The notes: generated from the sequence alone by a model not told the origin. A stretch of 64,000 nt of DNA from a bacterium (GCA_027484965.1 JAIXRY010000015.1:1622-65621); one strand, 5' to 3'. Counted from the stretch's first letter, positions 34,251 through 57,414 are shown. Translations and numbers: made by a program.

Positions 34251-34297
34251 AACTAAATGTATATTTAACTATGTATTAAAAATGTTATAATTATTTT

Positions 34298-38915: not shown

Positions 38916-38980
38916 GTATTTAATGTATAGATTTGATAGGTGAGTGTCAAATTTAAGGTTGTATTTTTTTTGTAGATATT

Positions 38981-39037
38981 GGGACTCGCTGACTACATCG
39001 GTCAGTACTTTTTAATACAGGACTCGAACCAGTAATC
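38981..39037. repeat. Copy A of a short palindromic interspersed repeat (GGGACTCGCTGA(C/T)TACATC(G/A)G...) plus a tRNA-Asp-3'-end-like segment GGACTCGAACCAGTAA
   Basis: Shares 40 to 60 bp with copies at 39671-39738 and 39851-39925. Also 17/19 identity to the tRNA-Asp 3' half at 50366-50386. Confidence 0.5.
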
Positions 39038-39043
39038 TATATT

Positions 39044-39598
39044 TTAAATTCCTTTAAGAATCATTTCCATTTCTGGTATAACAGCACCACTCTTCATTTT
39101 AAACCTTTCTTCTGAAAAACGTTTTCCTGTATCTTTAAAACCTAACTTTTTATAGAATTCAATCGCATTCGTGTTGTATATAGCAACATCCACAACAGTA
39201 TCTTTATTCAAATCAAGAATAGTTTTAGCTTGATTCCAAAGTAGCGAACCAACACCCTTTCCTTGATATTCAGGTTTTATATAAATTAGACTTAATCTGT
39301 TTCCTTGTGTATTTTTTTCGATACGACAAATACCAAGTATGTTATTTGCATTTTTTGCAACAAAAAAAGTTTCACCCTCAGGAGGGTTTGTAATCGTTTC
39401 AATTCTTTTTTGTATTTTTTCTTCAGTGAATGCATTTTTAAATTTATCTTCAATGTCATCAATAGTTATTCCGAATTCTTCATTTGGATATGTAGTAAGC
39501 CATGTCTTATAAAAAACTTCTTGAATTTCTTTTGCATCATCTGGTTTTGCTAATAAAATCTTCACGTCCATTTTTTCTTGGTTTATTATCTTTTCCAT
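39044..39598 (-). CDS. GNAT-family N-acetyltransferase
   Basis: Acetyl-CoA binding motif A IYIKPEYQGKGVGSLLW. Confidence 0.75.
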   Translation of the reverse strand: MEKIINQEKMDVKILLAKPDDAKEIQEVFYKTWLTTYPNEEFGITIDDIEDKFKNAFTEEKIQKRIETITNPPEGETFFVAKNANNILGICRIEKNTQGNRLSLIYIKPEYQGKGVGSLLWNQAKTILDLNKDTVVDVAIYNTNAIEFYKKLGFKDTGKRFSEERFKMKSGAVIPEMEMILKGI

Positions 39599-39670
39599 CT
39601 ATATATTATATCAGCTCTAAAGTTCTATCACTATAAATAAAAACATCTAAGAAGAACTCAAATAGATACT

Positions 39671-39738
39671 GAGACTCTCTGATTATATCAGTAAGCACTT
39701 TTCAATCTCGTAAACTCGATAATGAAAAGTCTTTCGAT
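39671..39738. repeat. Copy B of the palindromic interspersed repeat
   Basis: GAGACTCTCTGATTATATCAGTAAGCACTTTTCAATCTCGTAAACTCGATAATGAAAAGTCTTTCGATG aligns with copy C at high identity. Confidence 0.5.
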
Positions 39739-39850
39739 GATTGAACTCGATCCTTACAGGATCAGTACACCTTTTCGATATATTCGAAACATATTTCTCA
39801 TATATAACGAAAAGCTTTTCGAGTCCCGCACGTAAGCCATGCAGATGGAC

Positions 39851-39925
39851 GGGACTCGCTGATTACATCAGCAGGTACTTTTCAATCTCATAAATTCGAT
39901 AATGAAAAGTCTTTCAAGTCCCGAC
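39851..39925. repeat. Copy C of the palindromic interspersed repeat. A reverse-orientation GAGTCCCG lies at 39821-39828.
   Basis: GGGACTCGCTGATTACATCAGCAGGTACTTTTCAATCTCATAAATTCGATAATGAAAAGTCTTTCAAGTCCC. Internal stem GGGACT...AGTCCC. Confidence 0.5.
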
Positions 39926-39963
39926 GTGAGTGAAGCAGTTCACTCACTACCTTTCTGTGTATT

Positions 39964-40003
39964 AAATAAAAATAACTGAGAAGAACTCAGTTATTTTTAT
40001 TTA
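39964..40003. terminator. Palindromic terminator downstream of the minus-strand TA pair
   Basis: AAATAAAAATAACTGAGAAGAACTCAGTTATTTTTATTT. Confidence 0.5.
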
Positions 40004-40090
40004 TGCGCGGACTAGTAAACGATGTGGGAACTGCGATACGACAACGTAATGGTTATATTTATATACCAACCTTAAAATAAAAATCTCAAA

Positions 40091-40549
40091 TTAGTCTATT
40101 TTTGTATATCCGTATGCAAAAAAAGATTTTAACCTTCCTATAGTTTCTCCTTGAAACTCGACCTCGCTATCCTTAACTTCCTTTTTATGTTTTATTGAAG
40201 CAAGAACTATATGCTTACCATTGATACAATACATAATTCTTAAGCCATAACGAGCACCTTCCTTATCTACTGCCCATCTCATTTTCCAAAGAACCCAATC
40301 TTCTGATAAAAATGGCTGTTGTCCATTTTTATCATTATTAGGTATTTCATTTGGTGTACTGAACTTATTTTTAATTGTACTTGAAATCTGCCTTAAAATT
40401 GGAATAGTAGATATTTTCTCTGAAACAGAAAGTTTTTCGAACTCATCCTGAGTTAAGTCACACTCTAAAAAAGTGGGTTTTATATGTTTAGAAAGTTTTT
40501 TGACGTCTTTCCAAAAATCAGGGCAAGTAAATAGGGTGCAATCATCCAT
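40091..40549 (-). CDS. Candidate toxin: 152-aa protein with a C-terminal RelE/ParE-fold-like core, encoded directly downstream of the Panacea-domain gene
   Basis: C-terminal GARYGLRIMYCINGKHIVLASIKHKKEV resembles the RelE/ParE beta-sheet core (yRi.Y.i....i.il.i.H.k). The roughly 90-aa N-terminal extension is of unknown function. A 9-bp gap separates it from the upstream gene. Confidence 0.4.
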   Translation of the reverse strand: MDDCTLFTCPDFWKDVKKLSKHIKPTFLECDLTQDEFEKLSVSEKISTIPILRQISSTIKNKFSTPNEIPNNDKNGQQPFLSEDWVLWKMRWAVDKEGARYGLRIMYCINGKHIVLASIKHKKEVKDSEVEFQGETIGRLKSFFAYGYTKID

Positions 40550-40558
40550 TTTAGTAAT

Positions 40559-41077
40559 CTAAGCATTTTGATAATCAGGATATTCTTCAACCAAGTTGTA
40601 AGCGGTATTATATTCTACTACTCCTCCTTCATTAGCTGAAAGATAAGGTATTTGTTTGTGAGTAATATCTGCCAATATATTATAAGAATAGTTTGCGTAT
40701 TTATTTAAAACATACTTAACTGTTTTAATCTCCTTAGCATCTAGCCCTACATTAACATTATCTTTTGGGCAATACTCAAACTGACCTTTCTTTTCTATTA
40801 GACCACTACGTACAAGTACGTTTAGATCGGCATTAAAGGAACGCGCCAAAGGACCATATGTTCTCTTTTCATAAATACTTTCAATGTCAGAAATCGGTTC
40901 ATCATTAAAAGCATAGTGAATAAAATCAGAAAAGTATTGAAACTTTGCTAATTTAATTTTATCGTCAATACCGTTAGTTTCTTGAATTATTGTATATAGA
41001 AGTTTTTGAGATTTAGTGAGGTCCATACTTATATTATTATACACTAATCTAGTAAAGGAATGTAATTCCAAAATCAA
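40559..41077 (-). CDS. Panacea-domain (DUF4065, SocA-like) putative antitoxin. True start probably MDLTKSQ.
   Basis: QKLLYTIIQ...KRTYGPLARSF follows the KLqKLLYf...W.yGPv pattern of DUF4065. Confidence 0.5.
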   Translation of the reverse strand: MILELHSFTRLVYNNISMDLTKSQKLLYTIIQETNGIDDKIKLAKFQYFSDFIHYAFNDEPISDIESIYEKRTYGPLARSFNADLNVLVRSGLIEKKGQFEYCPKDNVNVGLDAKEIKTVKYVLNKYANYSYNILADITHKQIPYLSANEGGVVEYNTAYNLVEEYPDYQNA

Positions 41078-41229
41078 GTGTGAATAACATAATATAGTAT
41101 AATTTATATTATGTCAAGTATTATAGTACTTTGTCAGTCATTATAAAATTAAAGACAAGCATAAAACTACTTTTTTATATTTAAAACTTTCTTAACTTAA
41201 TGATATCAATCAATAAAGAATGGTCAAGA

Positions 41230-43521
41230 TTAAATTAAAATATCACTCAAGTTTTTCCAACCCTTAAGAGCTGTGGTGTACTCATATTCGGCGCTAGTAT
41301 TGATTTTCCAGCCATTTGAGCCATCTTGAACAGCTATACCGCCATAGTAACCTTTCTTACTTTTGAGCCACGCTTGGAGCGATTCAGCGCGTTCTTTCGC
41401 CCCTTTTGCAGTATCTCCACCTTTAGTATCAATAATGTAGATACCTTTTTTAGTTTTTATAATCCAATCAGGGTAAAACAAACTCTCTTTATTCTTTGTT
41501 GTGTCGTGATAGGGAATAGAAAAAAACTCGCTACCTAAATCACCATTCTTATACCACCAAATAATAGAGTCATTTTCTTCAAGAGATTTTATAAAGTTTG
41601 TTTCATTTTTTCTGCCAGTATATTCTTTCTCAATAAAAAATGGTTGCATAGCACTTTTCTTAACTTTCATTTCTTCATATTGGTCAGTATAAAAAAGTGA
41701 TGGTCTTGGTATTTCAATTTGTTCGGTCCTCTTTGAGCGATCTGATTTACGGTTTACTTCTTGCTCTCGAATCGGACGATATGTCGCTAATGCTTTACCG
41801 ATAACATTACTTAAAACACTATTTACCTTTAGAAAATCACCGACAACAATATGGTATATTTCTAATCTTTGTTCTTTCAATAATCCAAGAAGCCACACAT
41901 TCAAAGCGGTCTTTAATTTACCCCAAGAACGCTCTGGAGCAAACTTTTTATCCTCATCAATTTGCTTAGCAATACTATTGAAACAAAACAGATTATATAA
42001 TCTTTCTAAATCGTGCTGAGACATTTCTTGCTCATAACTACTACCTTCAGCAAGAAGCTCTTGTTTGAAGTTATCGTAATCATCAATCTCAACATCAACA
42101 ATCAAACCATTCGTCACTCTTTTATTTAAGACAAGTTTCTTATCAGTCAATTTTTTTATGATATTTGCTTTTGTGTCTTTCTCAGAAATACTAAAATACT
42201 CATTAGCTGTTTCCTTGAAAGTTTCTTGAAAACTATCACCTAAGTCATTGTAATCAGTTCGGCTCATAAACACAGAATCAAGGACTATTGGCTCAACAGA
42301 CGGGTTACGATAACTACTATTTATTGCTGGTCTATTTTGGTCAGCAGATTTTGAATATCCTACAAGCACCTCATTGCGTTTATAGTTTGTATATAAATAA
42401 CCAAGATTAAGTTCTGGTATTGCGAAATGTGTACCTAGTGGCATACGCAATATACGCCCTACTGTTTGAATAGCAAAAGTAGCATTCTTTATTTCTCTAA
42501 ACATAACTAAGACACTTGCTCGTGGACAATCCCAACCAGTAGCTACTGCTTGTTTAAATAGTAAAAAAGAAACTGGAGAATTGTGACTTTCTATATCCTT
42601 AAGATTAACCTTGTCGTCAGATAGCCAGACCGCTATTTCGTCTTCTGTAATACCTTTAGCTTTTAGAAAACTAATAATGAAACCTTGTTTATTATCATTT
42701 GTACCCTTACTTGCTTTGTCATCGTTTGGTAATTGAATTAAAACTAAAGGATTTATATCAAGTTTTAGTTTATCCTTATAAAAATCTAAAAGTTCTTTTC
42801 TTTTATTAAAAGCTAAAGTGAGTAATGCATCACTATCATTCAAATCTTTCATTTCTTCTAAATCTTCTTTTGTTTGAAAAACGATTTTCTCTTTAATCAA
42901 TCCCTCTCTAACGACATCTTTGCGATCCACATCAACAGTAATACCTTTGGTTTGAGGAGTAGCAGAAACACCAATAATGATTCTTGGCTTAATAACATTC
43001 TTGATTAAATCACTCGCTAGAACTGTATCTGAAGCAATATGTTCTTCATCAATAATCAACACAACATCACGCTTAAGTAAATGTGTGTTTTCTAAATACA
43101 TATCAAAAGTAGTATTAGCTTCACCTTCAGTACGAAGTTTCCTATTGTCTTTTGATCTTGAAACAAGTTTTTGCCAGTTTATAAAAAACACTCCATTTTT
43201 AGGTAGATTCCCGTCTCGTAAATTATTCATATCCACAAGAGGATTTTCACTCGCTCCACCATAATAAGAAAAAAGTTTCTCTTTTGACTGCATTGCGAGA
43301 GAATCTGAGTTTGTTATCCAAATAAAACTAACATTAGCACTAGAAAATCTTGGATCAGAAACAATATCTCTTAAGAACTGAGCCATCATTATTGTTTTAC
43401 CTGAACCAGTAGGAGATTTGAAAGTCAGGTTCACATTAGTATCGCCAAGTTTCCATAAAGTTAGAAACTTATCTTTAAGTTGTGATATGGCTGTTTCTTG
43501 AAATGGTTTTAGTGTAAGCAT
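41230..43521 (-). CDS. res: Type III restriction enzyme Res subunit (SF2 helicase plus C-terminal PD-(D/E)xK nuclease)
   Basis: Helicase motif I KSPTGSGKT. DEAH-like LIIDEEH. C-terminal nuclease motif YPDW...IYIIDTKG (PD...D.K). Immediately downstream of mod in the same operon. Confidence 0.7.
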   Translation of the reverse strand: MLTLKPFQETAISQLKDKFLTLWKLGDTNVNLTFKSPTGSGKTIMMAQFLRDIVSDPRFSSANVSFIWITNSDSLAMQSKEKLFSYYGGASENPLVDMNNLRDGNLPKNGVFFINWQKLVSRSKDNRKLRTEGEANTTFDMYLENTHLLKRDVVLIIDEEHIASDTVLASDLIKNVIKPRIIIGVSATPQTKGITVDVDRKDVVREGLIKEKIVFQTKEDLEEMKDLNDSDALLTLAFNKRKELLDFYKDKLKLDINPLVLIQLPNDDKASKGTNDNKQGFIISFLKAKGITEDEIAVWLSDDKVNLKDIESHNSPVSFLLFKQAVATGWDCPRASVLVMFREIKNATFAIQTVGRILRMPLGTHFAIPELNLGYLYTNYKRNEVLVGYSKSADQNRPAINSSYRNPSVEPIVLDSVFMSRTDYNDLGDSFQETFKETANEYFSISEKDTKANIIKKLTDKKLVLNKRVTNGLIVDVEIDDYDNFKQELLAEGSSYEQEMSQHDLERLYNLFCFNSIAKQIDEDKKFAPERSWGKLKTALNVWLLGLLKEQRLEIYHIVVGDFLKVNSVLSNVIGKALATYRPIREQEVNRKSDRSKRTEQIEIPRPSLFYTDQYEEMKVKKSAMQPFFIEKEYTGRKNETNFIKSLEENDSIIWWYKNGDLGSEFFSIPYHDTTKNKESLFYPDWIIKTKKGIYIIDTKGGDTAKGAKERAESLQAWLKSKKGYYGGIAVQDGSNGWKINTSAEYEYTTALKGWKNLSDILI

Positions 43522-43525
43522 AAAA

Positions 43526-45214
43526 TTATAGACGATTTATTTCTTTATAAACTTCAAGGATAGGTTCAGGAATATCCTCGACACGAATCAAACTTGAACT
43601 ATATTCATTCTTATACTCATTTTTACCCCAACCAAAAACATAAAGAACTGCTGGAGTTTTTTCTTTCTCTAGCTTAGAAATAAGTTCTTTAATTTTTGAC
43701 TTATCTTCTTTGAAGTAAATAGCTGTCTTTTTATTAACGCCTTCAAAAACCTGATACCATTCATTTTTCTCTATTTCATTGAGGGTGTCCTCACGAACAG
43801 CAATCATTTCACCTGCTTGATAAGTGACTTTAATTTTGGCTTCATCAGAAATCTTATGCAGTTTATCTACATTTACAAGATCAGTTTTGTAATACGATAA
43901 ATTACCACCAAGACCATCAACCTTTTCGCCTTTCTTATTTTTGTATCCCTTAATAACTCTTTTTATACGCTCATAAGTCACTTCCTCACAGATATTATTT
44001 TCATTGTTAGTACAAAGAATAAACTTGCGATTACCACCATCTTGCTTATTGAGTTCAAGTACGGCGTGTCCTGTTGTACCAGAGCCAGCAAAGAAATCTA
44101 GGACAAGACCATTTTTATTCTGTTCTACAGCAGTAAGACATTCTTTAACTAAATGCAGTGATTTTGGAAATGGGAACTTGTCAGGAAGTATTTGTGATAG
44201 TAGCTGAGTGCCATAGATATTTGCATTAAACTTAGAATCATCCCAAACTGTTTTTCTAATATAGTTTTTCTTTCCACGTAAAATGGAGTATTGCTCACCT
44301 TGTTTTTTGGCAACAAGTTCATCAGCTATTGTTTCAACAGTATCTCTAGCAAATCTCCATCTTCGCTCTATTCCGTTTCCGTCTATAGGGTAAATATAAA
44401 TAAGACCATTTTTTAGCTCATTTGCTAATTTTGGATGAAATGTATCTTTGGGGACATCTCCAAATCCAACAATTTTATTTCCATCAAATATAATTGAATA
44501 AAAACAATTAGGTGACCCTTCTCTTTTTGAGTTTTCTTTACCCCAATCTCTAAATGGAGTCAGTTCCTCACCAGAACGCAATTCTGGATTTATATATCCA
44601 CTTTGTTTTGGATAAACAAAATAAATGTATTCGTGATTATAAGAAAAGTTTGTTCCTTGAATTCCTCCTTGGTTGTGAATTACAGTTACACAGTCTATTG
44701 CCCAGCCATAAAAGATTTCTTGTAGTAAAAGACCTAATGTATTTAATTCGTTCTCATCAATAGCACACACTAACGCACCCTTAGGAGAGAGTAATCCCTT
44801 AGCGAGTTTTAATCTTGAGTACATCATAGACAACCATTTACTGTGCCTAAAATCATCTTCTTTGTCTATATAATCATTATTATAACGCCAACTATTATTT
44901 CCAGTATTATATGGGGGATCAATATAAATAACATCAATCTTGCTTTTGTGTGTATAGTTCAAAACAGAAAGAGAGTGATAATTGTCACCCTCAATCAAAA
45001 GATTGCTTGGCGCTGAATTATCAGAAACAATTTTTCTATTCTTAACTTCTCTAAGAATTGGTATATTCTCTTTGCATTGTAAAACAACATCTTCTGGTTT
45101 ATCTTCCCAGATGAGTCCATATTTTTTATCCTTGAGTTTTTTAATTTCTAACTCAAGTTCTGAAATACGAGCAAGAAGCTCTTTTTCGTGTAATTGTAAT
45201 TTATTTGTAGACAC
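43526..45214 (-). CDS. mod: Type III R-M Mod subunit (beta-class N6-adenine DNA methyltransferase) with N-terminal coiled-coil and about 160 extra C-terminal residues
   Basis: Motif IV IYIDPPYNTG precedes motif I DFFAGSGTTGHA, the beta-group order. Gene order is mod then res. Confidence 0.75.
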   Translation of the reverse strand: MSTNKLQLHEKELLARISELELEIKKLKDKKYGLIWEDKPEDVVLQCKENIPILREVKNRKIVSDNSAPSNLLIEGDNYHSLSVLNYTHKSKIDVIYIDPPYNTGNNSWRYNNDYIDKEDDFRHSKWLSMMYSRLKLAKGLLSPKGALVCAIDENELNTLGLLLQEIFYGWAIDCVTVIHNQGGIQGTNFSYNHEYIYFVYPKQSGYINPELRSGEELTPFRDWGKENSKREGSPNCFYSIIFDGNKIVGFGDVPKDTFHPKLANELKNGLIYIYPIDGNGIERRWRFARDTVETIADELVAKKQGEQYSILRGKKNYIRKTVWDDSKFNANIYGTQLLSQILPDKFPFPKSLHLVKECLTAVEQNKNGLVLDFFAGSGTTGHAVLELNKQDGGNRKFILCTNNENNICEEVTYERIKRVIKGYKNKKGEKVDGLGGNLSYYKTDLVNVDKLHKISDEAKIKVTYQAGEMIAVREDTLNEIEKNEWYQVFEGVNKKTAIYFKEDKSKIKELISKLEKEKTPAVLYVFGWGKNEYKNEYSSSLIRVEDIPEPILEVYKEINRL

Positions 45215-45216
45215 AA

Positions 45217-45362
45217 AAGGGATGGGTTTTTTGTCTTGTAAAAGCTGGCTACGAAATCACAGAACCCCGCGCCAGCCTGAGCTTTTTACAGCCCCATATC
45301 AGTTTCCCGATATGACCCATCCCTGAGTAGCTGAACGCGGGGTTCAGTATCAGGGATGGGTG
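45217..45362. promoter_or_regulatory. GC-rich cluster of interleaved inverted repeats in the mod / 45478-ORF divergent intergenic region
   Basis: GGGATGGGT appears forward at 45219 and 45353, and as its reverse complement ACCCATCCC at 45315. CAGAACCCCGCG (45260) pairs with CGCGGGGTTCAG (45337). The GC content is very unusual for this AT-rich genome. Confidence 0.45.
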
Positions 45363-45477
45363 TTTTATACCGTATCTATCAATTTTTACATTAAATAGAC
45401 CTTAGGTAAATTAAATTGTCTTGTCTTTTTAGGACAATTTTAGTATAGCAAAAAACACTTAATTTTCATAGTCAAAT

Positions 45478-46791
45478 ATGATAAAATGCTTATGGTTTAA
45501 TACCAATTACAATTACTCAATGAATAAATTAAATCTAAAAGTTAAAGAGCAGATTGCGAGAGTTATTGGAGACAATTTTACTACTAATGAAATTGTTAAT
45601 GTCTTTACTGACGCGAATGTAAAAACAGATATATCTCTTTATGCAAAATGGAAGATAATTCTAAACGGGTTTAGTAATACATCTTCAGAAGAAGTGCTTT
45701 TTTATATTATTGAACAGTTTTGTCATCCTCTTAATTTTCCAGACACAGAAAGCAGATCTGACTTCATTATTAAATTAAACGAGATTCTTAAATATGAGTT
45801 TTTAGATTTAGTAGCCACAGAAAGAACAGTAAAAATTGTTGATATAAACGATGAAACTATACAAGAAAGAATACGAAAACCAGCAAAAACTTCAACTGAT
45901 TATATAGTAGATGCATTAAACTTTTTTAAGAATGAATACAATAAGGTTAGGATTTCTGGTTTAGATTATGAGTACTCATTAGGAGTAAATGCTAGTAGCG
46001 AAGAATTAGAATTAGACGATGGAGAAGAATATAACGCAAAACTTGAAGCCATAAAACGACTAAATAATGTTGGTTTAATTACTGAATATAAAATTGAAGA
46101 AAGAATGGAAAGTGGAGGATATTATGTTTGGGATTATGCTATTTGTAAAATAGACGAGCAAAAAATTACTGGTCAAGAAGAACCATTAGCTACAGATGCT
46201 GACATAAAATCAATAACCAAGAAAATAATACACGAACATACTCATAGATTTGAAAATAGTATTCAAGAAAAAGGAATTGATCTAAATATAAAAAATAAAG
46301 AAGATAATGTGGTTATAAAAAATAAAAAGAAAATCACATTACCTAGATTTCCAAGAACAGAATGGTCTAAAGTTTCAATAACACTTCTTGATGATACGAA
46401 TATGCTTCTTTCTGATGGAAAAAGCACGAAACCATCTTCTTTTGAGGGGATAGGTTGTGAGGATGGTAGAAATGGTAAACCAGATGAAAACTGGGCTTTT
46501 TTAGTAAGATTAGCTAAGGGTGATGGTCAAACAATTCCTATTTCCAAAAAAGAACGAGAGAGTAAGAAAAAACAAAAACAGAAGATTACAGACATTTTAA
46601 GGAAGATATTTCAAAACGAAACCGACCCTTTTGAAAATGAGTCAGGAGGAGTTTACAATGCAAAGTTTAATATAAAATATAATACTGACAAGAAAGAAAA
46701 AACTGATAGTAGATACTCTGATTTAGAGGATGTATTCTCTGAAATGACAGCGTCAACCGAAGAAGATATGAATAGTGATTTTTCACAATAA
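45478..46791 (+). CDS. Hypothetical protein (437 aa), island cargo adjacent to the R-M system
   Basis: Long ORF with a K/E-rich low-complexity C-terminus. No recognised catalytic motif. Confidence 0.45.
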   Translation: MIKCLWFNTNYNYSMNKLNLKVKEQIARVIGDNFTTNEIVNVFTDANVKTDISLYAKWKIILNGFSNTSSEEVLFYIIEQFCHPLNFPDTESRSDFIIKLNEILKYEFLDLVATERTVKIVDINDETIQERIRKPAKTSTDYIVDALNFFKNEYNKVRISGLDYEYSLGVNASSEELELDDGEEYNAKLEAIKRLNNVGLITEYKIEERMESGGYYVWDYAICKIDEQKITGQEEPLATDADIKSITKKIIHEHTHRFENSIQEKGIDLNIKNKEDNVVIKNKKKITLPRFPRTEWSKVSITLLDDTNMLLSDGKSTKPSSFEGIGCEDGRNGKPDENWAFLVRLAKGDGQTIPISKKERESKKKQKQKITDILRKIFQNETDPFENESGGVYNAKFNIKYNTDKKEKTDSRYSDLEDVFSEMTASTEEDMNSDFSQ

Positions 46792-46917
46792 TATAAAATA
46801 GAGAAAAGTATAGAAGCCACAACATATTTCTGTTGTGGCTTTTTGCCCTTGTGATTTTTCGTCCCCTGTAAATGAGAGCTCGAAACTCTCATATTACAAA
46901 TCATTAGAAAAATTACT

Positions 46918-47181
46918 ATGAAAAGTAAAAAGATTTCTATAAGCGATCCATCGTCTGTGTTCACCACTTATGACTTAGGTTGCAGTACTGCACTTTTATG
47001 TGCAGATTTTGAGCTTTTGACGATTGAGAAAGACGATCCAAGAAAAGCTCTTTTTGTATTCCATAAGAAAAGTGGAATAGAAGAAACAGCAAATAAGTAT
47101 TTTGCTGATAAATTAGATGTCAAAGCAAGGTCGTATTTTGACAACTTGAAAGCTCTAAAAAATAAGCTGTACGGAAACTAA
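46918..47181 (+). CDS. DUF5659-like small protein
   Basis: TTYDLGCSTALLCADFELLTIEKDDPRKALFVFHK...YFDNLKALKNKLY matches the DUF5659 pattern common on mobile elements. Confidence 0.5.
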   Translation: MKSKKISISDPSSVFTTYDLGCSTALLCADFELLTIEKDDPRKALFVFHKKSGIEETANKYFADKLDVKARSYFDNLKALKNKLYGN

Positions 47182-47184
47182 TCT

Positions 47185-47391
47185 ATGATGTTGTCAGATG
47201 AAAACATTATAGTATTTCAAAAACTCTATAAAGAGCATTTTGGAAAAGACATAAGTAAAGAAGATGCATATAAACAAGGCACAAAGTTTTTACGATTGAT
47301 GTCTTTGGTGTATCGTCCGATGACACGAGAAGAGTTTCAGTTTGCTCAAGAACGACAAGCAGAATCTTTGCGAAAGCAAAGAATTCCTTGA
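47185..47391 (+). CDS. Small hypothetical protein (68 aa)
   Basis: ORF tightly packed between the DUF5659 gene and the Rep-like gene (4-bp overlap). Confidence 0.35.
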   Translation: MMLSDENIIVFQKLYKEHFGKDISKEDAYKQGTKFLRLMSLVYRPMTREEFQFAQERQAESLRKQRIP

Positions 47392-48608
47392 AAAACACCG
47401 ACAACATAAAAATCATTATGGATACTATTATTATAAAAATACACGGTCCCAATAAGTTTGATTTTAAAGATAGGTCACTATTTCTACCAGAGATAAATCC
47501 TAGAAAATATGCAGATTTGTCACCTAGTGAAGTACGATCACGAAACTCGTCGCGCCCGTACCTCAGGAAGTTTGTCCTATATCCTAAGGCAAGCGATGAC
47601 TACATACCTAGAGTTGAAGTATTTGAAACTTTATTAAAAGATCGTAATTTCGTTGTTTATATTATGAAAATCACTTTTTCAGCCCCAAAACTACTTTATT
47701 GGAATAGTTTGCAGGAGGTAGGAGAAAAAGATAAAGATAAACTGTTTTATGCTTTGCGGATGTCTCTTGAGAATGTTGGTATCGGGGTAGAGACTGAATC
47801 TCTCGCGAACGCAACACTGGAGGCTGTGCACGTATGTAAAAATATACCTTTACCTAAAACGATAAAAATGCGAGATATAATCAATGAATTGGCGAAAATA
47901 GATATTAGTAAGGCATTTGATGTATCGGACAAGCAAGACAAAAAAGGTGCACGGGTGCTTAATATACACTCGGGGACAGTGGAATGGTCCTTGTACGATA
48001 AGATTTCAGATTCTATTCGTCCCAATAATAAACGTAGTGATAAGGGGCGTATGGGTGAAGAAAAAACAATTGTTGGAATATATAACCTACAAGACAGAGA
48101 AGTATTCCGTTACGAGTATCGTTTAAAGAAAACACAAACAACAAAAAGAGAAATAAATAAATTACTTAAAAGAGATTCCAAAACACCAGTCATTTTTAAA
48201 GATCTCTTTACTCCTGATTTGCTCAAAAAATTAGTACTCAATTCTTGGTACTTTATAGTAAATAAACCAGAAAATCAGCTTGCTCTATTTAGTGAAATAA
48301 ACAAATTAAAACTTTTACTGCACATACTCTCTGAGGCAAGTAAAAATGGTAAAAAAGCTCATAGTATGGATAATGCTTTTGTCTCATATGGACTAGCGAC
48401 TGTTATGCACGACGTTGGAGCAAAAGAGGTAAAAGGAGCTGTATTCGATGTCTGGAATAAAGATCATCCTGAGCGACTTACAAAGAAAATAAAGACAGCA
48501 TTAGATTTAATGAAAGGACTACCAATATCTCACAATATCGCTTTCATCGACTCTGAACTTGAAAAGTTTGAACTTATTAGCTTGGCTTCATTACAAAAAG
48601 GTATATAA
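47388..48608 (+). CDS. Putative rolling-circle replication initiator (Rep_trans / pT181 RepC-like)
   Basis: WSLYDKISD...VFRYEYRLKK parallels RepC FIRIYNKKQE...LWRVEIELKRD. This is a recalled-consensus comparison only. Confidence 0.4.
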   Translation: MKNTDNIKIIMDTIIIKIHGPNKFDFKDRSLFLPEINPRKYADLSPSEVRSRNSSRPYLRKFVLYPKASDDYIPRVEVFETLLKDRNFVVYIMKITFSAPKLLYWNSLQEVGEKDKDKLFYALRMSLENVGIGVETESLANATLEAVHVCKNIPLPKTIKMRDIINELAKIDISKAFDVSDKQDKKGARVLNIHSGTVEWSLYDKISDSIRPNNKRSDKGRMGEEKTIVGIYNLQDREVFRYEYRLKKTQTTKREINKLLKRDSKTPVIFKDLFTPDLLKKLVLNSWYFIVNKPENQLALFSEINKLKLLLHILSEASKNGKKAHSMDNAFVSYGLATVMHDVGAKEVKGAVFDVWNKDHPERLTKKIKTALDLMKGLPISHNIAFIDSELEKFELISLASLQKGI

Positions 48609-48728
48609 TGTAAACATCTACCCGTTTTTATGCAAAAGTATTTTTATTATAGACAACTTATGTTTTCTATACAGATGGGCATCCTTGTCCGCTTTGCTTT
48701 TGCAAACGGGTAGAGCAAGGATGCCCTT

Positions 48729-50384
48729 TTGTGTACTATAATAATTATGAATAACGATTACTCAAAAATTAAATACTTTATTTACGCTCGAAAATCTCAA
48801 GAGGGAGAGGAGAAGCAAGTTCAGTCTATTCCTGATCAATTACGAGAAGATGATATTGTCGCTAAACGATACAATATCAAGCCTGTAGGGATTTTAACTG
48901 AAGAAGGATCTGCAAAAGAACCAAACAAGAGACCTGTATTTGAAGAAATGCTTGCCCGTATAAAAAATGGTGAAGCAAATGGAATTATCTGTTGGAACTT
49001 AAACCGTTTATCAAGAAATCCAGTAGATAGCGGAAAACTTCAATGGATGCTCCAAGAGGGTTTAATTCAATCAATTTTAACACCATCCAGAGAATACAAA
49101 CCGAGTGACAATGCAATTATTTTTAGTGTGGAAAGTGGTGGAGCAAATCAATATATTCTAGATTTGAAAGTGGGAGTACGGAGAGGATTAAACAGTAAAA
49201 TCATTAAGGGGCAAGCGCCAATACTTGCACCGCTTGGATATTTGAATACTAAGCACGAACTTCGCGGAGAAAATTACATAATAAAAGATCCTGAACGATA
49301 TGAACTTGTTAAGAAAGCTTGGGAGTTGATGCTTACTGGGGAATACTCTATTCCTAAGCTTTTAAAGATAGTAAATAATGACTGGGGGTTGAGAACACGA
49401 AAAAGAAAACATCGTGGCGGTGGAGAGGTTAATAAAAGTACTATGTATGGTGTTTTTACTAATATCTTTTATACAGGACTTTATTTATATAAAGGAAAAA
49501 TAGAAAATGGTATACACGAACCAATGATTACTATTGAGGATTTTGATAAAATGCAACAGATTCTTGGGAGGTATGGAAAACCAAGAGTTAAAAGTCATAT
49601 TTTTACCTACACAGGTACTATGATATGTGGGGAGTGTAATAGTGCAATCACTGCGACTACAAAGACCAAGTTAGTAAAAACTAAAAATGAATTGAAGGAT
49701 TATACTTTCTACTATTGTTCTCGTCGCAAGAAAGGTGCAGAAAAATGTACCCAGAGGGAATATATACCACTTAAGGAGATGGAGGATATCATAAAAGAAG
49801 AATTAGAAAAATATACGATTTCAGAAAAGTTTAGAGATTGGGCTTTGAAGATTTTGGAAGAGGAGCACACAGGTGAAGTGTTGGAACGTGAAGCTATCTA
49901 TAAGTCACAATTGAACGCATTAGACGTATCTCAAAAGGAGCTTGATAATCTAATAACTATGAGAATGCGAGAACTAATAGATGATGATCAATATACTTCA
50001 CGAAAAAAGGAGCTAAGTCAGACAATTGCTGTAATGAAGCAGAAAGTATCTGAAACTCAAAGTAGGGCACAAAATTGGGTCCAATATACTGAACAGGTGT
50101 TTGAGTTTGCACATATGGCTAAAGCAAGATTTGAAGACCCAAAAACTACCGTAGATGACAAGAAAGGTATCTTTATGGCTCTTGGTTGGAACTACATCAT
50201 AAAAGACAAAAAACTTTATATTTCTCAATGTGATTTACTAGAACCGATAGTAAAAAATCGTGACGCTGTAGAAAGTGAAATAAGTCGGTTGGAACTGGAA
50301 GAAAACATTGGTACAGAAAGACAAAACACCCCTTTCGGAGTGGCTTGTCCATTACTGCGCAGTCGGCGGGACTCGAACCCGTAA
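48729..50384 (+). CDS. Large serine recombinase (serine integrase). Start possibly at 48747.
   Basis: N-terminal resolvase catalytic domain (YARKSQEG with catalytic Ser, ...R..R), recombinase domain, and zinc ribbon CGEC...C. The 3' end overlaps tRNA-Asp on the opposite strand. Confidence 0.8.
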   Translation: MCTIIIMNNDYSKIKYFIYARKSQEGEEKQVQSIPDQLREDDIVAKRYNIKPVGILTEEGSAKEPNKRPVFEEMLARIKNGEANGIICWNLNRLSRNPVDSGKLQWMLQEGLIQSILTPSREYKPSDNAIIFSVESGGANQYILDLKVGVRRGLNSKIIKGQAPILAPLGYLNTKHELRGENYIIKDPERYELVKKAWELMLTGEYSIPKLLKIVNNDWGLRTRKRKHRGGGEVNKSTMYGVFTNIFYTGLYLYKGKIENGIHEPMITIEDFDKMQQILGRYGKPRVKSHIFTYTGTMICGECNSAITATTKTKLVKTKNELKDYTFYYCSRRKKGAEKCTQREYIPLKEMEDIIKEELEKYTISEKFRDWALKILEEEHTGEVLEREAIYKSQLNALDVSQKELDNLITMRMRELIDDDQYTSRKKELSQTIAVMKQKVSETQSRAQNWVQYTEQVFEFAHMAKARFEDPKTTVDDKKGIFMALGWNYIIKDKKLYISQCDLLEPIVKNRDAVESEISRLELEENIGTERQNTPFGVACPLLRSRRDSNP

Positions 50385-50431
50385 CCTCCCGCGTGACAGG
50401 CGGGTGCTCTAACCAGTTGAGCTACGACTGC
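50358..50431 (-). tRNA. tRNA-Asp (GTC)
   Basis: Manual fold gives acceptor GCAGTCG/CGACTGC, D-arm GCTC-AACTGGTTA-GAGC, anticodon stem CCCGC/GCGGG with loop CTGTCAC, and T-arm ACGGG-TTCGAGT-CCCGC. No encoded CCA. Confidence 0.75.
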
Positions 50432-50483
50432 ATATTTGTTTTTAGACTAAACAATCTTTTTAAAAGGGAAGATGTAACCCATG

Positions 50484-50557
50484 TGTCGATGGGAGGGAAC
50501 GATCCTCCGACCTTAGCTTTATGAGTGCTACGCTCTAACCAACTGAGCTACATCGAC
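50484..50557 (-). tRNA. tRNA-Met (CAT), elongator Met or possibly Ile2. Atypical T-loop ATCGTTC and an A.A mismatch at 31:39.
   Basis: Acceptor GTCGATG/CATCGAC, D-arm GCTC-AGTTGGTTA-GAGC, anticodon loop CTCATAA. Confidence 0.55.
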
Positions 50558-50652
50558 ATGTGTTTTATATGACATTATATGAAGTATAGCAAAAAACATA
50601 TAGTGTATTTTATTCAAAAAATGACTGATGAAACCTGTCACGTTTCGAATTG

Positions 50653-50723
50653 TTGCGGGGCCCGGAATCGAACCGGGGTCCCAAGGTTATGAGCCTTGTG
50701 AGATGCCTCTTCTCTACCCCGCG
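50653..50723 (-). tRNA. tRNA-Met (CAT), probable initiator tRNA-fMet
   Basis: C1.A72 mismatch at the top of the acceptor stem (CGCGGGG / CCCCGCA). A11:U24 in the D-stem (GAGA/TCTC). Anticodon loop CTCATAA. T-arm CCCGG-TTCGATT-CCGGG. Confidence 0.6.
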
Positions 50724-50786
50724 GTAAAGTGTTCTAACATCATAACATTTTATTATAGAATATTCAAGCTTTTATTGTTCTCTATG

Positions 50787-50858
50787 AGCCATCAGTGAGA
50801 ATCGGACTCACGCTCTCTCCCTTACCAAGGGAGTGCTTTGCCACTAAGCTATGATGGC
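50787..50858 (-). tRNA. tRNA-Thr (GGT)
   Basis: Acceptor GCCATCA/TGATGGC, D-arm GCTT-AGTGGCA-AAGC, anticodon stem CTCCC/GGGAG with loop TTGGTAA, T-arm GTGAG-TCCGATT-CTCAC. Confidence 0.7.
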
Positions 50859-50963
50859 TTATTTGTTTTTATAATAATAGCTTATTTCTTGTGCGTTTCA
50901 AAATAGATTGTTGACTTTTTTATTTTTAAATGTATTATAAGATAAAAAGAAAGGAAACAAAAT

Positions 50964-51482
50964 ATGTCAGGAAAAATAAAAGATTTGCCATACGGTAGCC
51001 AGATAAGAACTTTCATGTCTGAAATTTTTAAAATTGCAAAAACGTCCCCAATAAAGATACCATATATCCTAGAAGAACTTCGAAATAAATTGGTAGAATT
51101 AGACAAAAAAGATGTTGGCCCAAGCATTTTACTCTCTAAAGGTGAGTATGTACTTGTGATAGGTACTCTAAATATTAGAAAAGAAGAAATTTCATCTATT
51201 TGTAAAGAATTTGCTATTAAAGATGTGAGATTTTTTGATGACTATGATAAAATGTCTGGAATAGAAGATGTAATCTCAAGTTCGAGGTGCGTTGCTGTTA
51301 TTTGTGGTCCTGTGCCACACTCTTTACCAAATGAGGTCATTTCAAAATATGATGAGAAGATTTTTAAAGCCAGAGTAAGCGGTAAACTGAAAATTACTCG
51401 CGGCAGTTTTTTAGAGACTATTGAGAAAATGATGCTTGATAGAACGAAGAAACATTTAGAATACGAACAGTCACGAAGTTAA
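50964..51482 (+). CDS. Hypothetical protein (172 aa)
   Basis: ORF with clear coding character. No recognised motif. Confidence 0.4.
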   Translation: MSGKIKDLPYGSQIRTFMSEIFKIAKTSPIKIPYILEELRNKLVELDKKDVGPSILLSKGEYVLVIGTLNIRKEEISSICKEFAIKDVRFFDDYDKMSGIEDVISSSRCVAVICGPVPHSLPNEVISKYDEKIFKARVSGKLKITRGSFLETIEKMMLDRTKKHLEYEQSRS

Positions 51483-51553
51483 GCTTCGTGATTTTATATT
51501 GAATAATAGGTAGTTTAATAAAATTAAATATAGGTTTATAATTTTTTTTATAA

Positions 51554-52459
51554 ATGTTATTCTTCTTAAATAATATGGACAAAGAACAAATAGAAAATCG
51601 TATAAAAGAAATAGAATTTGCTATGGAGCAAGTTGATTTTTGGAATGACAAAAATTCTGCTCAATCAATGATTCGAGAACTTCAAGATTTAAAAGAAAAA
51701 AAAGAAGGTGTTTCAAAGTATGACAAAGGGAATAGTGTCCTTACTATTATTGCAGGCGCAGGAGGTGACGACGCAGAAGACTTTGCTTTTATACTTGTGC
51801 GAATGTATGAAAAGTTTTGTGAAGGACACAACTTTCAAATGTTTCTAAAACATAAAAATGAGAATGATCATGGAGGGTATCGTAATATTACATTTTCTAT
51901 TATTGGTAAAAATTCATATGGATTTTTGAAACATGAATCCGGTGTTCATCGACTTGTAAGACTTTCTCCTTTTAATGCTGATCAAAAAAGACATACATCT
52001 TTTGCTCTTGTAGAAGTTATTCCAGAAATTGCCGAAATTGAAAGTATTACAATAAATCCTTCTGATTTAAAAGTAGAACTTTCAAAATCAAGTGGTCCCG
52101 GAGGACAGAATGTAAACAAAAGAGAGACTGCTGTGCGTGTCGTGCATATTCCTACAGGCCTCGCTTCAGGGTCTGACGGAGAACGAACTCAAGAAGCAAA
52201 CAAGGAGCAAGCAATGAAACTTCTAATAGGTAAACTTATTAAAAAAGCTGAAGATGAAAAAAAATCTTTAGAAGAAAGTATGCAGATTTCTAAAACTACA
52301 GATATTGAATGGGGGAATCAAATAAGGTCATATGTACTACATCCATACAAGATGGTAAAAGATCACAGAACAGGCGTAGAAACATCACAAGTCGACAAAG
52401 TCTTGGAAGAAGGTGCTATAGAAGATTTTATTGAGGCTGTTAAAAATCAAACTATATAA
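51554..52459 (+). CDS. prfB: Peptide chain release factor 2 (short N-terminus, no programmed frameshift evident)
   Basis: SPF tripeptide (RLSPFNAD) and GGQ motif (SGPGGQNVNK). Confidence 0.85.
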   Translation: MLFFLNNMDKEQIENRIKEIEFAMEQVDFWNDKNSAQSMIRELQDLKEKKEGVSKYDKGNSVLTIIAGAGGDDAEDFAFILVRMYEKFCEGHNFQMFLKHKNENDHGGYRNITFSIIGKNSYGFLKHESGVHRLVRLSPFNADQKRHTSFALVEVIPEIAEIESITINPSDLKVELSKSSGPGGQNVNKRETAVRVVHIPTGLASGSDGERTQEANKEQAMKLLIGKLIKKAEDEKKSLEESMQISKTTDIEWGNQIRSYVLHPYKMVKDHRTGVETSQVDKVLEEGAIEDFIEAVKNQTI

Positions 52460-52560
52460 TAACAAAAAAACACTTTTCTCGACAAAGTGTTTTTTTGTTA
52501 TTTAAATTGAATTCCACTATTAATTGTATTGAAGTCTTTTTGGAGAGGGTGGTATAATAA

Positions 52561-53247
52561 ATGGTAATGATTCAATTCGAAAATGTTTCCAAATTATATA
52601 AACAAGACGATACACTGTCTCTTGATAATATCACCTTGAAAATCAATCAAGGTGAATTTGTGTCGGTTGTTGGGCACTCAGGTGCAGGTAAGACAACTCT
52701 CACAAAGTTAATTATGAAAGAAGAATCTCCTACAACAGGGAGTATTTTTGTGGATGGTGTTGATATAGAAAAGCTTAAGAGTTCAGACCTTACACAATAT
52801 CGCCGTCGTATAGGTGTTGTGTTTCAAGATTTCCGTTTACTTCAAAACAAGACTGCATATGAAAATATTGCATTCGCTATGGAGGCTGTAGGAAAATCTG
52901 ATGAAGAAATACAAACAGATGTTCCTCATGTACTTGAGCTTGTAGATCTGTCAAATAGAATGATGCATTTTCCTTATCAAATGTCGGGAGGAGAGAAACA
53001 ACGTCTTGCTATTGCTCGTGCAATTATCAATCAGCCAGAAGTTATTATTGCAGATGAGCCTACAGGAAATCTTGACCCAATGAACACTCAAGAAGTTGTT
53101 AATATTTTGAAAAAAATTAATGACTTAGGTACAACAATCCTTCTCACAACTCACAATAAAGAAGTTATACATTCTTTAGGAAAGAGGGTTATAACTTTTG
53201 AGAAGGGTCGTATTATTAGTGATGAGAATAACAGTAAGAAAATATAA
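52561..53247 (+). CDS. ftsE: Cell division ATP-binding protein FtsE
   Basis: ABC ATPase (Walker A GHSGAGKTT, signature LSGGEKQR, Walker B IIADEPT). Followed by ftsX. Confidence 0.85.
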   Translation: MVMIQFENVSKLYKQDDTLSLDNITLKINQGEFVSVVGHSGAGKTTLTKLIMKEESPTTGSIFVDGVDIEKLKSSDLTQYRRRIGVVFQDFRLLQNKTAYENIAFAMEAVGKSDEEIQTDVPHVLELVDLSNRMMHFPYQMSGGEKQRLAIARAIINQPEVIIADEPTGNLDPMNTQEVVNILKKINDLGTTILLTTHNKEVIHSLGKRVITFEKGRIISDENNSKKI

Positions 53248-53249
53248 AT

Positions 53250-54173: not shown

Positions 54174-54204
54174 AATTAAAAATATAATTTACTGACAAGA
54201 TTTT

Positions 54205-55866: not shown

Positions 55867-55870
55867 ACTA

Positions 55871-55910
55871 AAACAAAAGAGCGACCCTTCGGGTCGCTCT
55901 TTTGTTTCTT
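55871..55910 (+). terminator. Rho-independent terminator after pyrG
   Basis: AAAAGAGCGACCCTTCGGGTCGCTCTTTTGTTT. Confidence 0.6.
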
Positions 55911-55911
55911 G

Positions 55912-55982
55912 TTGCTAGACTAGGACTCGAACCTAGATAGGCGGTACCAGAAACCGCAGTCCTACCATTAGACGATCTAGCA
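55912..55982 (-). tRNA. tRNA-Gln (CTG)
   Basis: Acceptor TGCTAGA/TCTAGCA (U1:A72), D-arm GTCT-AATGGTA-GGAC, anticodon stem GCGGT/ACCGC with loop TTCTGGT, T-arm CTAGG-TTCGAGT-CCTAG. Confidence 0.7.
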
Positions 55983-56295: not shown

Positions 56296-56300
56296 TATAA

Positions 56301-57413: not shown

Positions 57414-57414
57414 T

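Follow-up and report, generated by a model that had tools for sequence, protein, structure and literature searches.

An integrative element with a large serine recombinase gene at the 3' end of tRNA-Asp(GTC)

The 64,000-nucleotide stretch of bacterial DNA that was analysed (GCA_027484965.1 JAIXRY010000015.1:1622-65621, the window) contains a 10,352-bp integrative element, at 40004/40009 to 50355/50360, flanked by two TGCGC cores. We consider it very probable that a large serine recombinase inserted this element between tRNA-Asp(GTC) and the former terminator of that tRNA, that the element belongs to a Patescibacteria family targeting the ends of tRNA genes, and that its att sites and genes are arranged as proposed here.

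Element boundaries and att sites

The boundaries are defined by a precise empty site in a close relative, a check that the sequence-only reading had suggested. In L007, a publicly available contig of the same population, window positions 39706-40008 are fused directly to 50352-58172, with 100% identity over the first segment and 99.99% over the second, which includes the tRNA. Another contig (L006) consists of the island only and spans 40120-50385. In the related host L011, identity is 98.65% over the left end of the island but only 87.7% over the adjoining IMPase gene, which argues for recent transfer; the host arm there is different and lacks the GNAT gene. In L011 and at 11 further mapped attL sites, different hosts thus carry the element at the same target. 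The flanks are identical between island-bearing and island-free genomes, and all ORFs of the element are intact. Composition, proposed earlier as a contrast, does not mark the element as foreign (GC 32.9% versus 35.0%, tetranucleotide distance within the host range).

Table 1. Features of the element and its junctions, in window coordinates
Feature	Position	Strand	Remarks
AT-rich palindromic hairpin, host (B) arm of attL	39963..40003		Perfect 18-nt inverted repeat, T-runs on both sides
Left core TGCGC, attL crossover region	40004..40008	+	From L007 junctions; only identity common to both
Element-side (P') arm of attL	40009..40080	+	Also displaced last 23 recombinase codons and stop (GLVNDVGTAIRQRNGYIYIPTLK, then stop)
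152-aa ORF, candidate toxin	40091..40549	-	Candidate by its position downstream of the Panacea gene
SocA/Panacea-domain antitoxin-like protein	40559..41077	-	PF13274, E = 5.7e-10
Type III restriction subunit (res)	41230..43521	-	PF04851 ResIII; PADLOC REase_III
Type III methyltransferase (mod)	43526..45214	-	PF01555; PADLOC MTase_III, E = 6.9e-76
LOOT RNA (RF03000)	45279..45408	-	67.2 bits, above the gathering score of 46.4
orf437, 437-aa protein	45478..46791	+	No family match
DUF5659 protein, backbone	46918..47181	+	PF18903, E = 1e-10
orf68, 68-aa protein	47185..47391	+	Most widely conserved partner of the recombinase
396-aa protein, Rep_trans rolling-circle initiator fold	47418..48608	+	Fold match
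Large serine recombinase, integrated form, 545 aa	48747..50384	+	Pfam Resolvase, Recombinase, Zn_ribbon_recom
Element-borne hairpin, CACTCCGAAAGGGGTG + TTTTGTCTTT	50317..50342	-	tRNA-sense, inside the recombinase C-terminal codons, P arm
Right core TGCGC, attR crossover region	50356..50360	+	Overlaps tRNA-Asp discriminator and last two acceptor base pairs
tRNA-Asp(GTC), intact, host (B') arm of attR	50358..50431	-	ARAGORN and Rfam; start called 50357/50358

The tRNA-Asp gene closes a Thr-Met-Met-Asp cluster, as had been read from the sequence. TGCGC is all that attL and attR have in common; their arms lack significant similarity, as for a large serine recombinase, and neither site has clear dyad symmetry. 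Recombination would take place within these 5 bp, present in both attP and attB. On the tRNA side they span two trailer bases, the discriminator and the final two base pairs of the acceptor stem. Since the core is confined to the extreme 3' end, the tRNA stays whole. The attB half-sites would be the tRNA acceptor and T-arm on one side and a variable AT-rich terminator on the other.

On the element side, a conserved motif, TAGTAAACGATGTGGGAACTGC, lies in the P' arm at 40013-40034 and has a single copy in the window. Beyond this element, 12 loci carry it at 13 junction sites. TGCGC followed by this motif, with unrelated host arms, was observed in L019, L021, L025, L026, L027, L033, L035, L036, L058 and L087, and also in the His-type locus L062. 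Element sizes across the loci with the motif range from 5.2 to 11.5 kb.

The recombinase, its exchanged tail and the terminators

The recombinase matches PF00239 (E = 2.6e-12), PF07508 and PF13408, PHROG 95 'integrase' (E = 8e-55) and the C-terminal domain of the A118 integrase in the PDB (4kis/6dnw, E = 7e-9). Its catalytic domain keeps the R15-x-S17 motif of large serine recombinases; Y13, R15 and S17 are invariant in an alignment of 18 sequences and nearly invariant in one of 35. An AF2 model of a relative (P0055) has the catalytic, recombinase and zinc-ribbon/coiled-coil layout, with helices at 360-463 after the zinc-ribbon strands, in agreement with a recombinase domain and a zinc ribbon with an inserted coiled coil. 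From these features, the protein would be the enzyme that catalyses the integration. The gene had been placed at 48729-50384. Its end was correct and lies 27-28 nt inside the tRNA gene on the opposite strand, but the start is likely ATG 48747 because the 545-aa product is on record and the product from TTG 48729 is absent.

The final 8 codons and the stop of the recombinase gene are tRNA-derived. In the proposed mechanism, attP sits within the recombinase ORF, and the circular form would read through the core to give a 561-aa protein ending in a conserved 23-residue tail from the other end of the element. Because of this position of attP, integration would swap the tail for tRNA-encoded residues, displacing it by 10 kb and leaving the 545-aa protein. 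The in-frame tail peptide is conserved, with 211 synonymous codon differences in frame versus 63 and 48 in the other frames, an argument for coding that is weaker over the first 30 nt, which are also constrained as a putative binding site. Metagenomic homologues also bear this tail, in about 10 of 120 homologue clusters, and most of the remaining clusters end in T-arm-encoded residues. The tail, modelled at low confidence (pLDDT 33-71), may have a function. A circular (attP) copy of this element was not found in the searches. At family level, the attP pattern gave no viral match and one metagenome match, which joins remnants of elements; recombinases with the tail and junctions of the attP type occur in the relatives L016, L023, L037, L061, L092 and L093.

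Two hairpins flank the exchange sites. The native hairpin at the left end is probably the original bidirectional terminator, as it directly follows tRNA-Asp in the empty-site contig. The element-borne hairpin at the right end was flagged by a terminator scan. Among 26 loci, it has compensatory changes in 5 of 7 pairs, and its G-U pairs are valid on the tRNA-sense strand only. This hairpin may be the replacement terminator of the tRNA operon; with its T-run, it would terminate transcription of the operon and limit antisense read-through into the recombinase gene.

Backbone and cargo genes

The backbone comprises the DUF5659 gene, orf68, the gene for the protein with the rolling-circle Rep fold and the recombinase gene. 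The cargo comprises the Type III restriction-modification pair preceded by the LOOT RNA, and the Panacea antitoxin-like gene with its partner ORF. The earlier calls of GNAT, Panacea, Type III mod and res, and DUF5659 genes all hold. Adjacent mod and res genes form a Type III restriction-modification system, and the LOOT RNA precedes mod by 65 nt in the same orientation; this RNA is also found in 16 of the best 80 related loci. In the putative Panacea toxin-antitoxin module, the antitoxin domain is present, and the adjoining 152-aa ORF has no family match in Pfam, NCBIfam or PADLOC. The C-terminal part of orf437 is common to some related elements, with tblastn matches in 8 related loci (L013, L017, L018, L019, L036, L062, L089 and others).

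In about 50 of the best 80 loci, the recombinase gene has a DUF5659 gene upstream, and about 60 of the 80 encode the N-terminal 47 residues of orf68. Searches with orf68 gave no family or PDB match. orf68 is a candidate directionality factor or regulator, and both proteins are, by position, candidate excision cofactors.

The 396-aa protein had been described as a Rep_trans-like initiator, which stands at the level of fold (matches to 4cij and 4cwc) but not of sequence: PF02486 (Rep_trans) gave no match even at E <= 10, and searches of PHROGs, NCBIfam and PDB sequences gave no Rep support. We therefore designate it Rep by its fold. Its invariant tyrosines are Y62, Y193, Y232 and Y324. Compared with Rep_trans initiators such as pT181 RepC/RepD, the protein shares the fold and has no detectable sequence similarity, and it differs by an extra helical C-terminal half. 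A Rep_trans-type relaxase, NicK, is present in ICEBs1; the 396-aa protein likewise has a backbone position in an integrative element. The element may replicate after excision.

tRNA targeting across the recombinase family

We identified 490 relatives of the recombinase among species-representative genomes and analysed the best 80 loci. In 73 of these best 80 of 490 loci, a convergent tRNA has its 3' end directly against the recombinase gene. A convergent tRNA is called within -26 to +58 nt of the end of the recombinase match in 64 of them; in the nine others, the 3' part of the tRNA was missed by ARAGORN owing to an intron-like interruption or a contig end. The target tRNAs include Asp, His, Ser, Trp, Gln, Ile and others, and their types largely track the recombinase clades in a rough NJ tree. 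Some relatives adjoin relaxase and coupling-protein genes, which suggests plasmid-like or conjugative biology. Together with the empty site, this family-wide adjacency supports the original proposal of an integrative island at the tRNA-Asp 3' end moved by a large serine recombinase.

That proposal also drew an 11.4-kb island (38974-50431) which took in the GNAT gene and had a direct repeat of the tRNA-Asp 3' half at each end, the pattern of tyrosine-integrase islands. The resemblance behind it is real: GGACTCGAACCAGTAA lies at 39020-39035, and the 16-mer GGACTCGAACCNGTAA has two occurrences in the window, one at 39020 and the other within the tRNA, versus 0.01 expected. The match to the tRNA thus holds, but it is not the junction. 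Its T-arm-like stretch, in copy A of a three-copy local repeat, aligns with the repeat unit (AAACTCGATAATG in copies B and C). An att scar at 39020 was rejected, as the sequence beside the match, to its left, is not a tRNA acceptor strand. Long direct repeats of a tRNA 3' half are left by tyrosine integrases and not by serine recombinases; the short core and unsplit tRNA described above do not fit the 'classic' scars that had been claimed. The empty site retains the DNA up to the left core and leaves 38974-40003 outside, placing the true end about 1 kb rightward. The GNAT gene is host DNA, since it sits on a host contig (L001) from the same sample as L007, and L011 has the island without it. 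The longer island is refuted by the empty site, and we give it almost no credence.

The 10,352-bp element could instead be a fixed, immobile remnant whose recombinase lost its C-terminus on integration, leaving an inactive 545-aa protein. As the searches did not yield an attP circle of this element, the empty site could be an ancestral allele and not an excision product; the displaced tail at 40009-80 and the degenerate remnants of such elements elsewhere (L016, L092, L058) also agree with this. We regard it as unlikely given the intact ORFs, the recent transfer seen in L011 and the identical flanks of island-bearing and island-free genomes. Most of the 120 homologue clusters are, moreover, in the same truncated state, as expected if integration is the normal resting state and excision rebuilds the gene. 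A prophage or phage satellite using a serine integrase is very improbable. The recombinase does match a PHROG integrase, and two PHROGs of uncharacterised function match the Panacea protein, but no capsid, terminase, tail, portal or lysis family was found among seven element proteins compared with PHROGs (res and mod excluded). The size of 10.35 kb, the Rep_trans-fold protein in the backbone and the relaxase and coupling-protein genes beside some relatives also speak against a phage. Lastly, the adjacency of recombinase and tRNA might be a coincidence of annotation or assembly, with the element moved otherwise, for instance by homologous recombination between tRNA clusters. Assemblies do often break at conserved tRNA genes (L006 ends at 50385 and L008 starts at 50396). 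However, the same arrangement recurs within a few bases in those 73 independent loci, from different MAG projects, and the junctions are precise to the 5-bp core and combine a conserved motif on the element side with host arms that are unrelated; coincidence is scarcely believable.

The preferred reading, insertion by the large serine recombinase, brings together features of several known systems. Phage-type large serine integrases (A118/LI Int, phiC31, Bxb1, SPbeta SprA, SCCmec Ccr) have the same resolvase with R-x-S, recombinase domain and zinc ribbon with a long coiled coil, a gene at the element edge beside attP, and a very short common core. Here, in contrast, integration occurs at the very 3' end of a tRNA gene, the recombinase reading frame encloses attP and one attB half-site varies between hosts. 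Like the tyrosine-integrase islands of tRNA and tmRNA genes (P4-type, Islander catalogue), the elements insert at a tRNA 3' end and keep a functional tRNA, with the integrase at the tRNA-proximal edge, defence cargo and tandem arrays at one tRNA. They differ by an unrelated enzyme family, by 5 bp instead of a long tRNA 3' direct repeat, and by an uncut tRNA of which the trailer and terminator alone are replaced.

The SSV1-type integrase of archaeal fuselloviruses, a tyrosine recombinase, also has attP in its own gene; integration into a tRNA gene partitions that gene and excision restores it. The SSV1 gene is cut into two large parts, whereas here the exchange affects only the last 23 codons and leaves an ORF of nearly full length. 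The mycobacteriophages BPs and Brujita, which use a tyrosine integrase, have attP in a coding region, and integration alters the repressor C-terminus, which loses a degradation tag. There, as here, a C-terminus is tied to the integration state, but of the repressor and not of the recombinase itself. As described, the tycheposons of Prochlorococcus are also integrative elements that carry cargo and replication genes; they belong to another phylum, and the overwhelming majority use tyrosine recombinases.

The tRNA target had been singled out as unusual for this enzyme class. In agreement, a 2020 survey described t(m)RNA genes as 'previously unreported' targets of serine integrases and found such use in 14 of 297 predicted cases (PMC7192596). 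The large Patescibacteria recombinase family, nearly always at tRNA gene ends, is apparently undescribed, and its clades may have switched between tRNA species across Patescibacteria. Its targets, the ends of tRNA genes, are ones that serine integrases were thought hardly ever to use.

Boundaries of the element and its empty site

The four minus-strand tRNA genes identified with ARAGORN and Rfam lie in the order Thr, Met, Met, Asp, with tRNA-Asp(GTC) as the last gene of the cluster. A plus-strand ORF with Resolvase, Recombinase and Zn_ribbon_recom domains, the large serine recombinase (LSR) gene, ends 27-28 nt inside tRNA-Asp. Its product from the ATG start (545 aa) is present in public assemblies, and that from the TTG start is absent. 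The boundaries of the element were mapped by looking up the exact flanking proteins in public assemblies. Three host contigs (L001, L002 and L004) carry recG, DoxX, IMPase and GNAT and extend to window position 39726, and one contig (L006) consists of the island only (40120-50385). The empty site, with the tRNA cluster joined to the host flank, was found in L007, a contig from the same sample as L001, in which window positions 39706-40008 (100%) are joined directly to 50352-58172 (99.99%). Base by base, this empty site reads ...TTATTTTTATTTA-TGCGC-AGTCGGCGGGACTCG..., the left junction (attL) ...TTATTTTTATTTA-TGCGC-GGACTAGTAAACG... and the right junction (attR) ...GTCCATTAC-TGCGC-AGTCGGCGG... 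Because junctions and empty site could be compared in this way, the element is defined as 10,352 bp with a TGCGC core at each end. The predicted attP and attB junctions are ...GGCTTGTCCATTACTGCGCGGACTAGTAAACGATG... and ...TTATTTTTATTTATGCGCAGTCGGCGGGACTCG..., respectively; dyad symmetry that would fix the crossover dinucleotide within TGCGC was sought in both, and none was convincing. Within tRNA-Asp the core takes in the final two acceptor base pairs and the discriminator, and it extends over two bases of the trailer; the tRNA gene is thus left uninterrupted.

The sequence-only reading had proposed an island here with an att scar in copy A, a repeat near 39 kb. The island is real, but its coordinates and att model are corrected by the L007 empty site, and GNAT and copy A are host DNA. 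The 16-mer within copy A does exist (two matches against 0.01 expected) but is not an att scar. Both the empty site and the homology of copy A to two other local repeats, B and C, rule it out as attL. Copy A corresponds to the opening 36 nt of a unit present three times; in the other copies AAACTCGATAATG aligns with its T-arm-like stretch, and what lies left of the match is not acceptor strand. No further tRNA-Asp 3' fragment was found in the window with up to three mismatches allowed. In the related host contig L011, one such unit lies directly beside IMPase and GNAT is absent; GNAT therefore appears to have inserted inside one repeat unit, independently of the island. Composition, which had been suggested as a check, was uninformative, as the tetranucleotide distance of the island falls within the host range and its GC content is 32.9% vs 35.0%.

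Between GNAT and the native terminator lies a 400-nt gap with two 63-nt repeats of 89% identity and a number of hairpins. Its predicted fold (-113 kcal/mol) is far more stable than that of shuffled sequence (z = -9.0); a related sequence is present in L011, and a partial copy at the position of copy A. An Rfam search of this 39.6-40.0 kb intergenic region gave nothing above threshold, and the gap is probably an undescribed structured RNA.

Coordinates of features in the window and in related loci
Feature	Position	Strand	Remark
Pilin-like genes beside recG	33783-34792		also L001 4935-6514
Repeat copy A	38981-39037		units start at 38981, 39671 and 39851
16-mer in copy A	39020-39035
Structured gap	39599-40003	+
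Native hairpin	39963-40003		palindromic
TGCGC core, left	40004-40008
22-nt motif	40013-40033
LOOT RNA (RF03000)	45279-45408	-
LSR gene	ATG 48747 or TTG 48729 to 50384	+
Element-borne hairpin	50342-50327, T-run 50326-50317	tRNA-sense	flagged by simple terminator scan
CAG following tRNA-Asp	50355-50358
TGCGC core, right	50356-50360		discriminator at 50358
tRNA cluster	50357-50858	-	Thr, Met, Met, Asp
tRNA-Asp(GTC)	50357/50358-50431	-
LOOT copies in related loci	L019 6319-6448; L026 6663-6786; L059 6383-6507; L074 1328-1453; L087 6503-6624; L088 4748-4869		others also found
attP-like junctions in chromosomal contigs	L016 93-5988; L092 930-1030; L058 3843 and 4861

The exchanged recombinase tail and a putative element-borne terminator

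The island is an integrative element of the serine-recombinase type with tRNA gene ends as its target, attP within its own recombinase gene and a conserved putative terminator. When position 50360 is joined to 40009, the recombinase frame stays open for 23 further codons, GLVNDVGTAIRQRNGYIYIPTLK, to give a 561-aa protein. In the integrated state the gene's last residues are SRRDSNP, encoded by the tRNA acceptor and T-arm. Integration therefore exchanges the C-terminus of the LSR, displacing a conserved tail for a tRNA-encoded ending, and excision would restore it. The in-frame tail peptide is recognisable at most of the 17 attL/attP sites examined and clearly conserved at about 11, even where the DNA has diverged (IRQRNGYIYIP vs FERQNDTTIYIP). 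Synonymous codon differences number 211 in the tail frame vs 63 and 48 in the other two frames, and the third codon position is the most variable. The tail is present in about 10 of the 120 best homologue clusters (for example P0047, ...LRDLVDEVGTAIRQHNTYIYIPNL...), and most of the others end in a T-arm-encoded R-x-R-x-D-L-N-P/R. The AlphaFold model of a tail-bearing relative is a canonical LSR, with tail pLDDT values of 33-71.

A 22-nt motif, TAGTGGAYGAAGTGRGAACTG(C), begins 9 nt after the first base of the core and occurs exactly once in the window. It was also found upstream of the recombinase in L019, L021, L025, L026, L027, L033, L035, L036, L058 (twice) and L087, as well as in the His-targeting locus L062, where the core, TGGGTG, is the end of tRNA-His. 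Elements mapped with this motif range from 5.2 to 11.5 kb. Their host arms before the core are mutually unrelated and are often terminator hairpins.

On the tRNA-sense strand, 26 Asp-type loci share an invariant GCGCA followed by GGAC, a 6-7 bp hairpin with a GAAA-type loop, and TTTTGT. RNAalifold analysis of these loci revealed compensatory changes in 5 of the 7 hairpin pairs, and the frequent G-U pairs are valid only on that strand. The hairpin sits within the final recombinase codons. At the empty site, the native palindromic hairpin follows tRNA-Asp, and insertion would shift it 10 kb away. We infer from these sequences that the element would provide a replacement terminator for the tRNA, which would also curb antisense transcription into the recombinase gene.

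A recombinase family at tRNA 3' ends

Homologues of the LSR number more than 1,100 at E <= 1e-20. Species-representative genomes contain 490 related loci, of which nearly all carry a Patescibacteria label. We classified the best 80 of these 490 (45-82% identity). A convergent tRNA has its 3' end overlapping, or within 58 nt of, the end of the recombinase match in 64 of the 80. Nine more have the 3' portion of a tRNA that ARAGORN missed, owing to an interruption in the anticodon loop, to a contig end, or otherwise undetected. The recombinase reads into an element-type arm (attP-type junction) in four loci and stops at a contig end in two; one was not classifiable. In a rough neighbour-joining tree, the target tRNA largely tracks the recombinase clade (several Asp clades, then Ser, Gln, Ile, Trp and one large His clade), with a few exceptions (for example L040). 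In the window's clade the target tRNA-Asp genes have no encoded 3' CCA, and CAG follows the gene in the window. Other clades target His, Ser, Trp, Gln, Ile, Asn and Glu genes, which do encode CCA (TGG on the plus strand), and the core sequence therefore differs systematically between clades.

At three loci (L031, L032 and L054), the targeted tRNA-Asp, missed by ARAGORN, is interrupted after the anticodon-loop region, just past the recombinase gene. Group I introns have recently been reported in tRNA-Asp genes of Patescibacteria (PMC13011429), and the interruptions agree with them; an intron and 3'-end integration would therefore coexist in one gene.

The niche of tRNA 3' ends is usually held by tyrosine integrases, whereas here it is occupied by serine-recombinase elements. 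A 2020 survey of integrative elements described t(m)RNA gene use by serine integrases as previously unreported, counted the same arrangement in 14 of 297 predicted cases and called for experimental proof (PMC7192596). Literature searches on serine integrases or recombinases, tRNA, Patescibacteria and DUF5659, with most subscription journals outside their coverage, returned no description of the LSR family.

The element moves between hosts. In L011, an NCBI metagenome contig, the left end of the island is 98.65% identical, the adjoining IMPase gene is only 87.7% identical, and the host arm preceding TGCGC differs from that of the window. A family-level attP pattern used to look for the excised circle matched no viral contig; among metagenome contigs its single match was a remnant junction. 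Junctions resembling attP (element right arm, core, element left arm) were observed inside chromosomal contigs. L016 harbors an intact full-tailed recombinase, then 4.1 kb of sugar-metabolism genes (SIS, PfkB, HAD), then a 70-nt remnant of the recombinase 3' end fused to tRNA-Asp. Such junctions suggest that elements accrete in tandem, or that there are cargo units flanked by att arms but lacking an integrase; either is unexpected for serine recombinases.

Two contigs from two data sets, L093 (13.3 kb) and L094 (13.1 kb), carry a tail-bearing family recombinase, the unintegrated form, accompanied by a relaxase, a TraG/VirD4-like coupling protein, a DUF87 ATPase and a DNA methylase; they may be a small conjugative or mobilisable Patescibacteria plasmid. 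L037, a complete Bacteroidota chromosome (OZ252019.1, Ilyomonas sp., ~5.13 Mb), encodes a 49%-identical recombinase that has no tRNA nearby and whose junction is of the attP type; this is a family member outside Patescibacteria in a different configuration.

The genes surrounding the element (recG, DoxX protein, IMPase, prfB, ftsE/X, pyrG and type IV pilin-like proteins) look like those of a small Patescibacteria genome. Short genes with N-terminal methylation motifs, of the type IV pilin-like kind, form a run beside recG in the window and in L001. They are consistent with a Patescibacteria host taking up DNA via pili, a possible entry route for an element without its own transfer genes.

Cargo, LOOT RNA and significance

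A tblastn search of the island proteins against the 80 loci detected orf68 in about 60, DUF5659 in about 50 and orf406 in about 20. Searches with orf68 matched nothing; co-occurrence makes it a candidate excision cofactor or regulator. Homologous Type III res and mod genes are found in nine loci (L015, L018, L019, L020, L024, L042, L059 and L063, and L058 with res only). The Panacea domain and Type III mod/res calls made from sequence are solid; that the 152-aa ORF beside Panacea is a toxin is a guess from its position only. A PHROGs scan of seven element proteins detected no virion genes.

The island also encodes a LOOT RNA. A covariance model built from seven Rfam-confirmed copies and run on the 80 related loci identified LOOT in 16, making it a recurrent part of the element family. 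With one exception (L081), LOOT and the recombinase are on opposite strands, with LOOT ~1.6-5.5 kb upstream. It sits just 5' of a methyltransferase gene on the same strand wherever that gene is detectable. LOOT may serve the cargo operon as a leader or as a small RNA.

Taken together, these observations lead to a joint reading that we consider possible, if on balance doubtful: a large Patescibacteria serine-recombinase family occupying the tyrosine-integrase niche, with a tail switch, a replacement terminator and a relaxed attB. The conserved tail, borne only by the excised circle and swapped for tRNA-encoded residues, would act as a sensor or switch for integration state. The element would carry its own replacement terminator for the tRNA operon. 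The relaxed non-tRNA half-site of attB would allow attR reuse, tandem accretion and the mobilisation in trans of integrase-less cargo units.

Serine integrases are the main tools for large-DNA insertion and are described as avoiding tRNA targets. The family offers hundreds of natural recombinases, each recognising the conserved end of a different tRNA, with att sites readable from genomes, and specificity switches aligned with clades make it a ready data set on serine-integrase target choice. It includes candidate integrases whose attB already exists in almost any bacterium. The split-tail arrangement is a concrete idea for tying serine-integrase directionality or stability to integration state. 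The orphan LOOT RNA gains a genomic home in this element family. Finally, in Patescibacteria, a group with barely described mobile elements, the family appears to be a major vehicle of restriction-modification and toxin-antitoxin genes.
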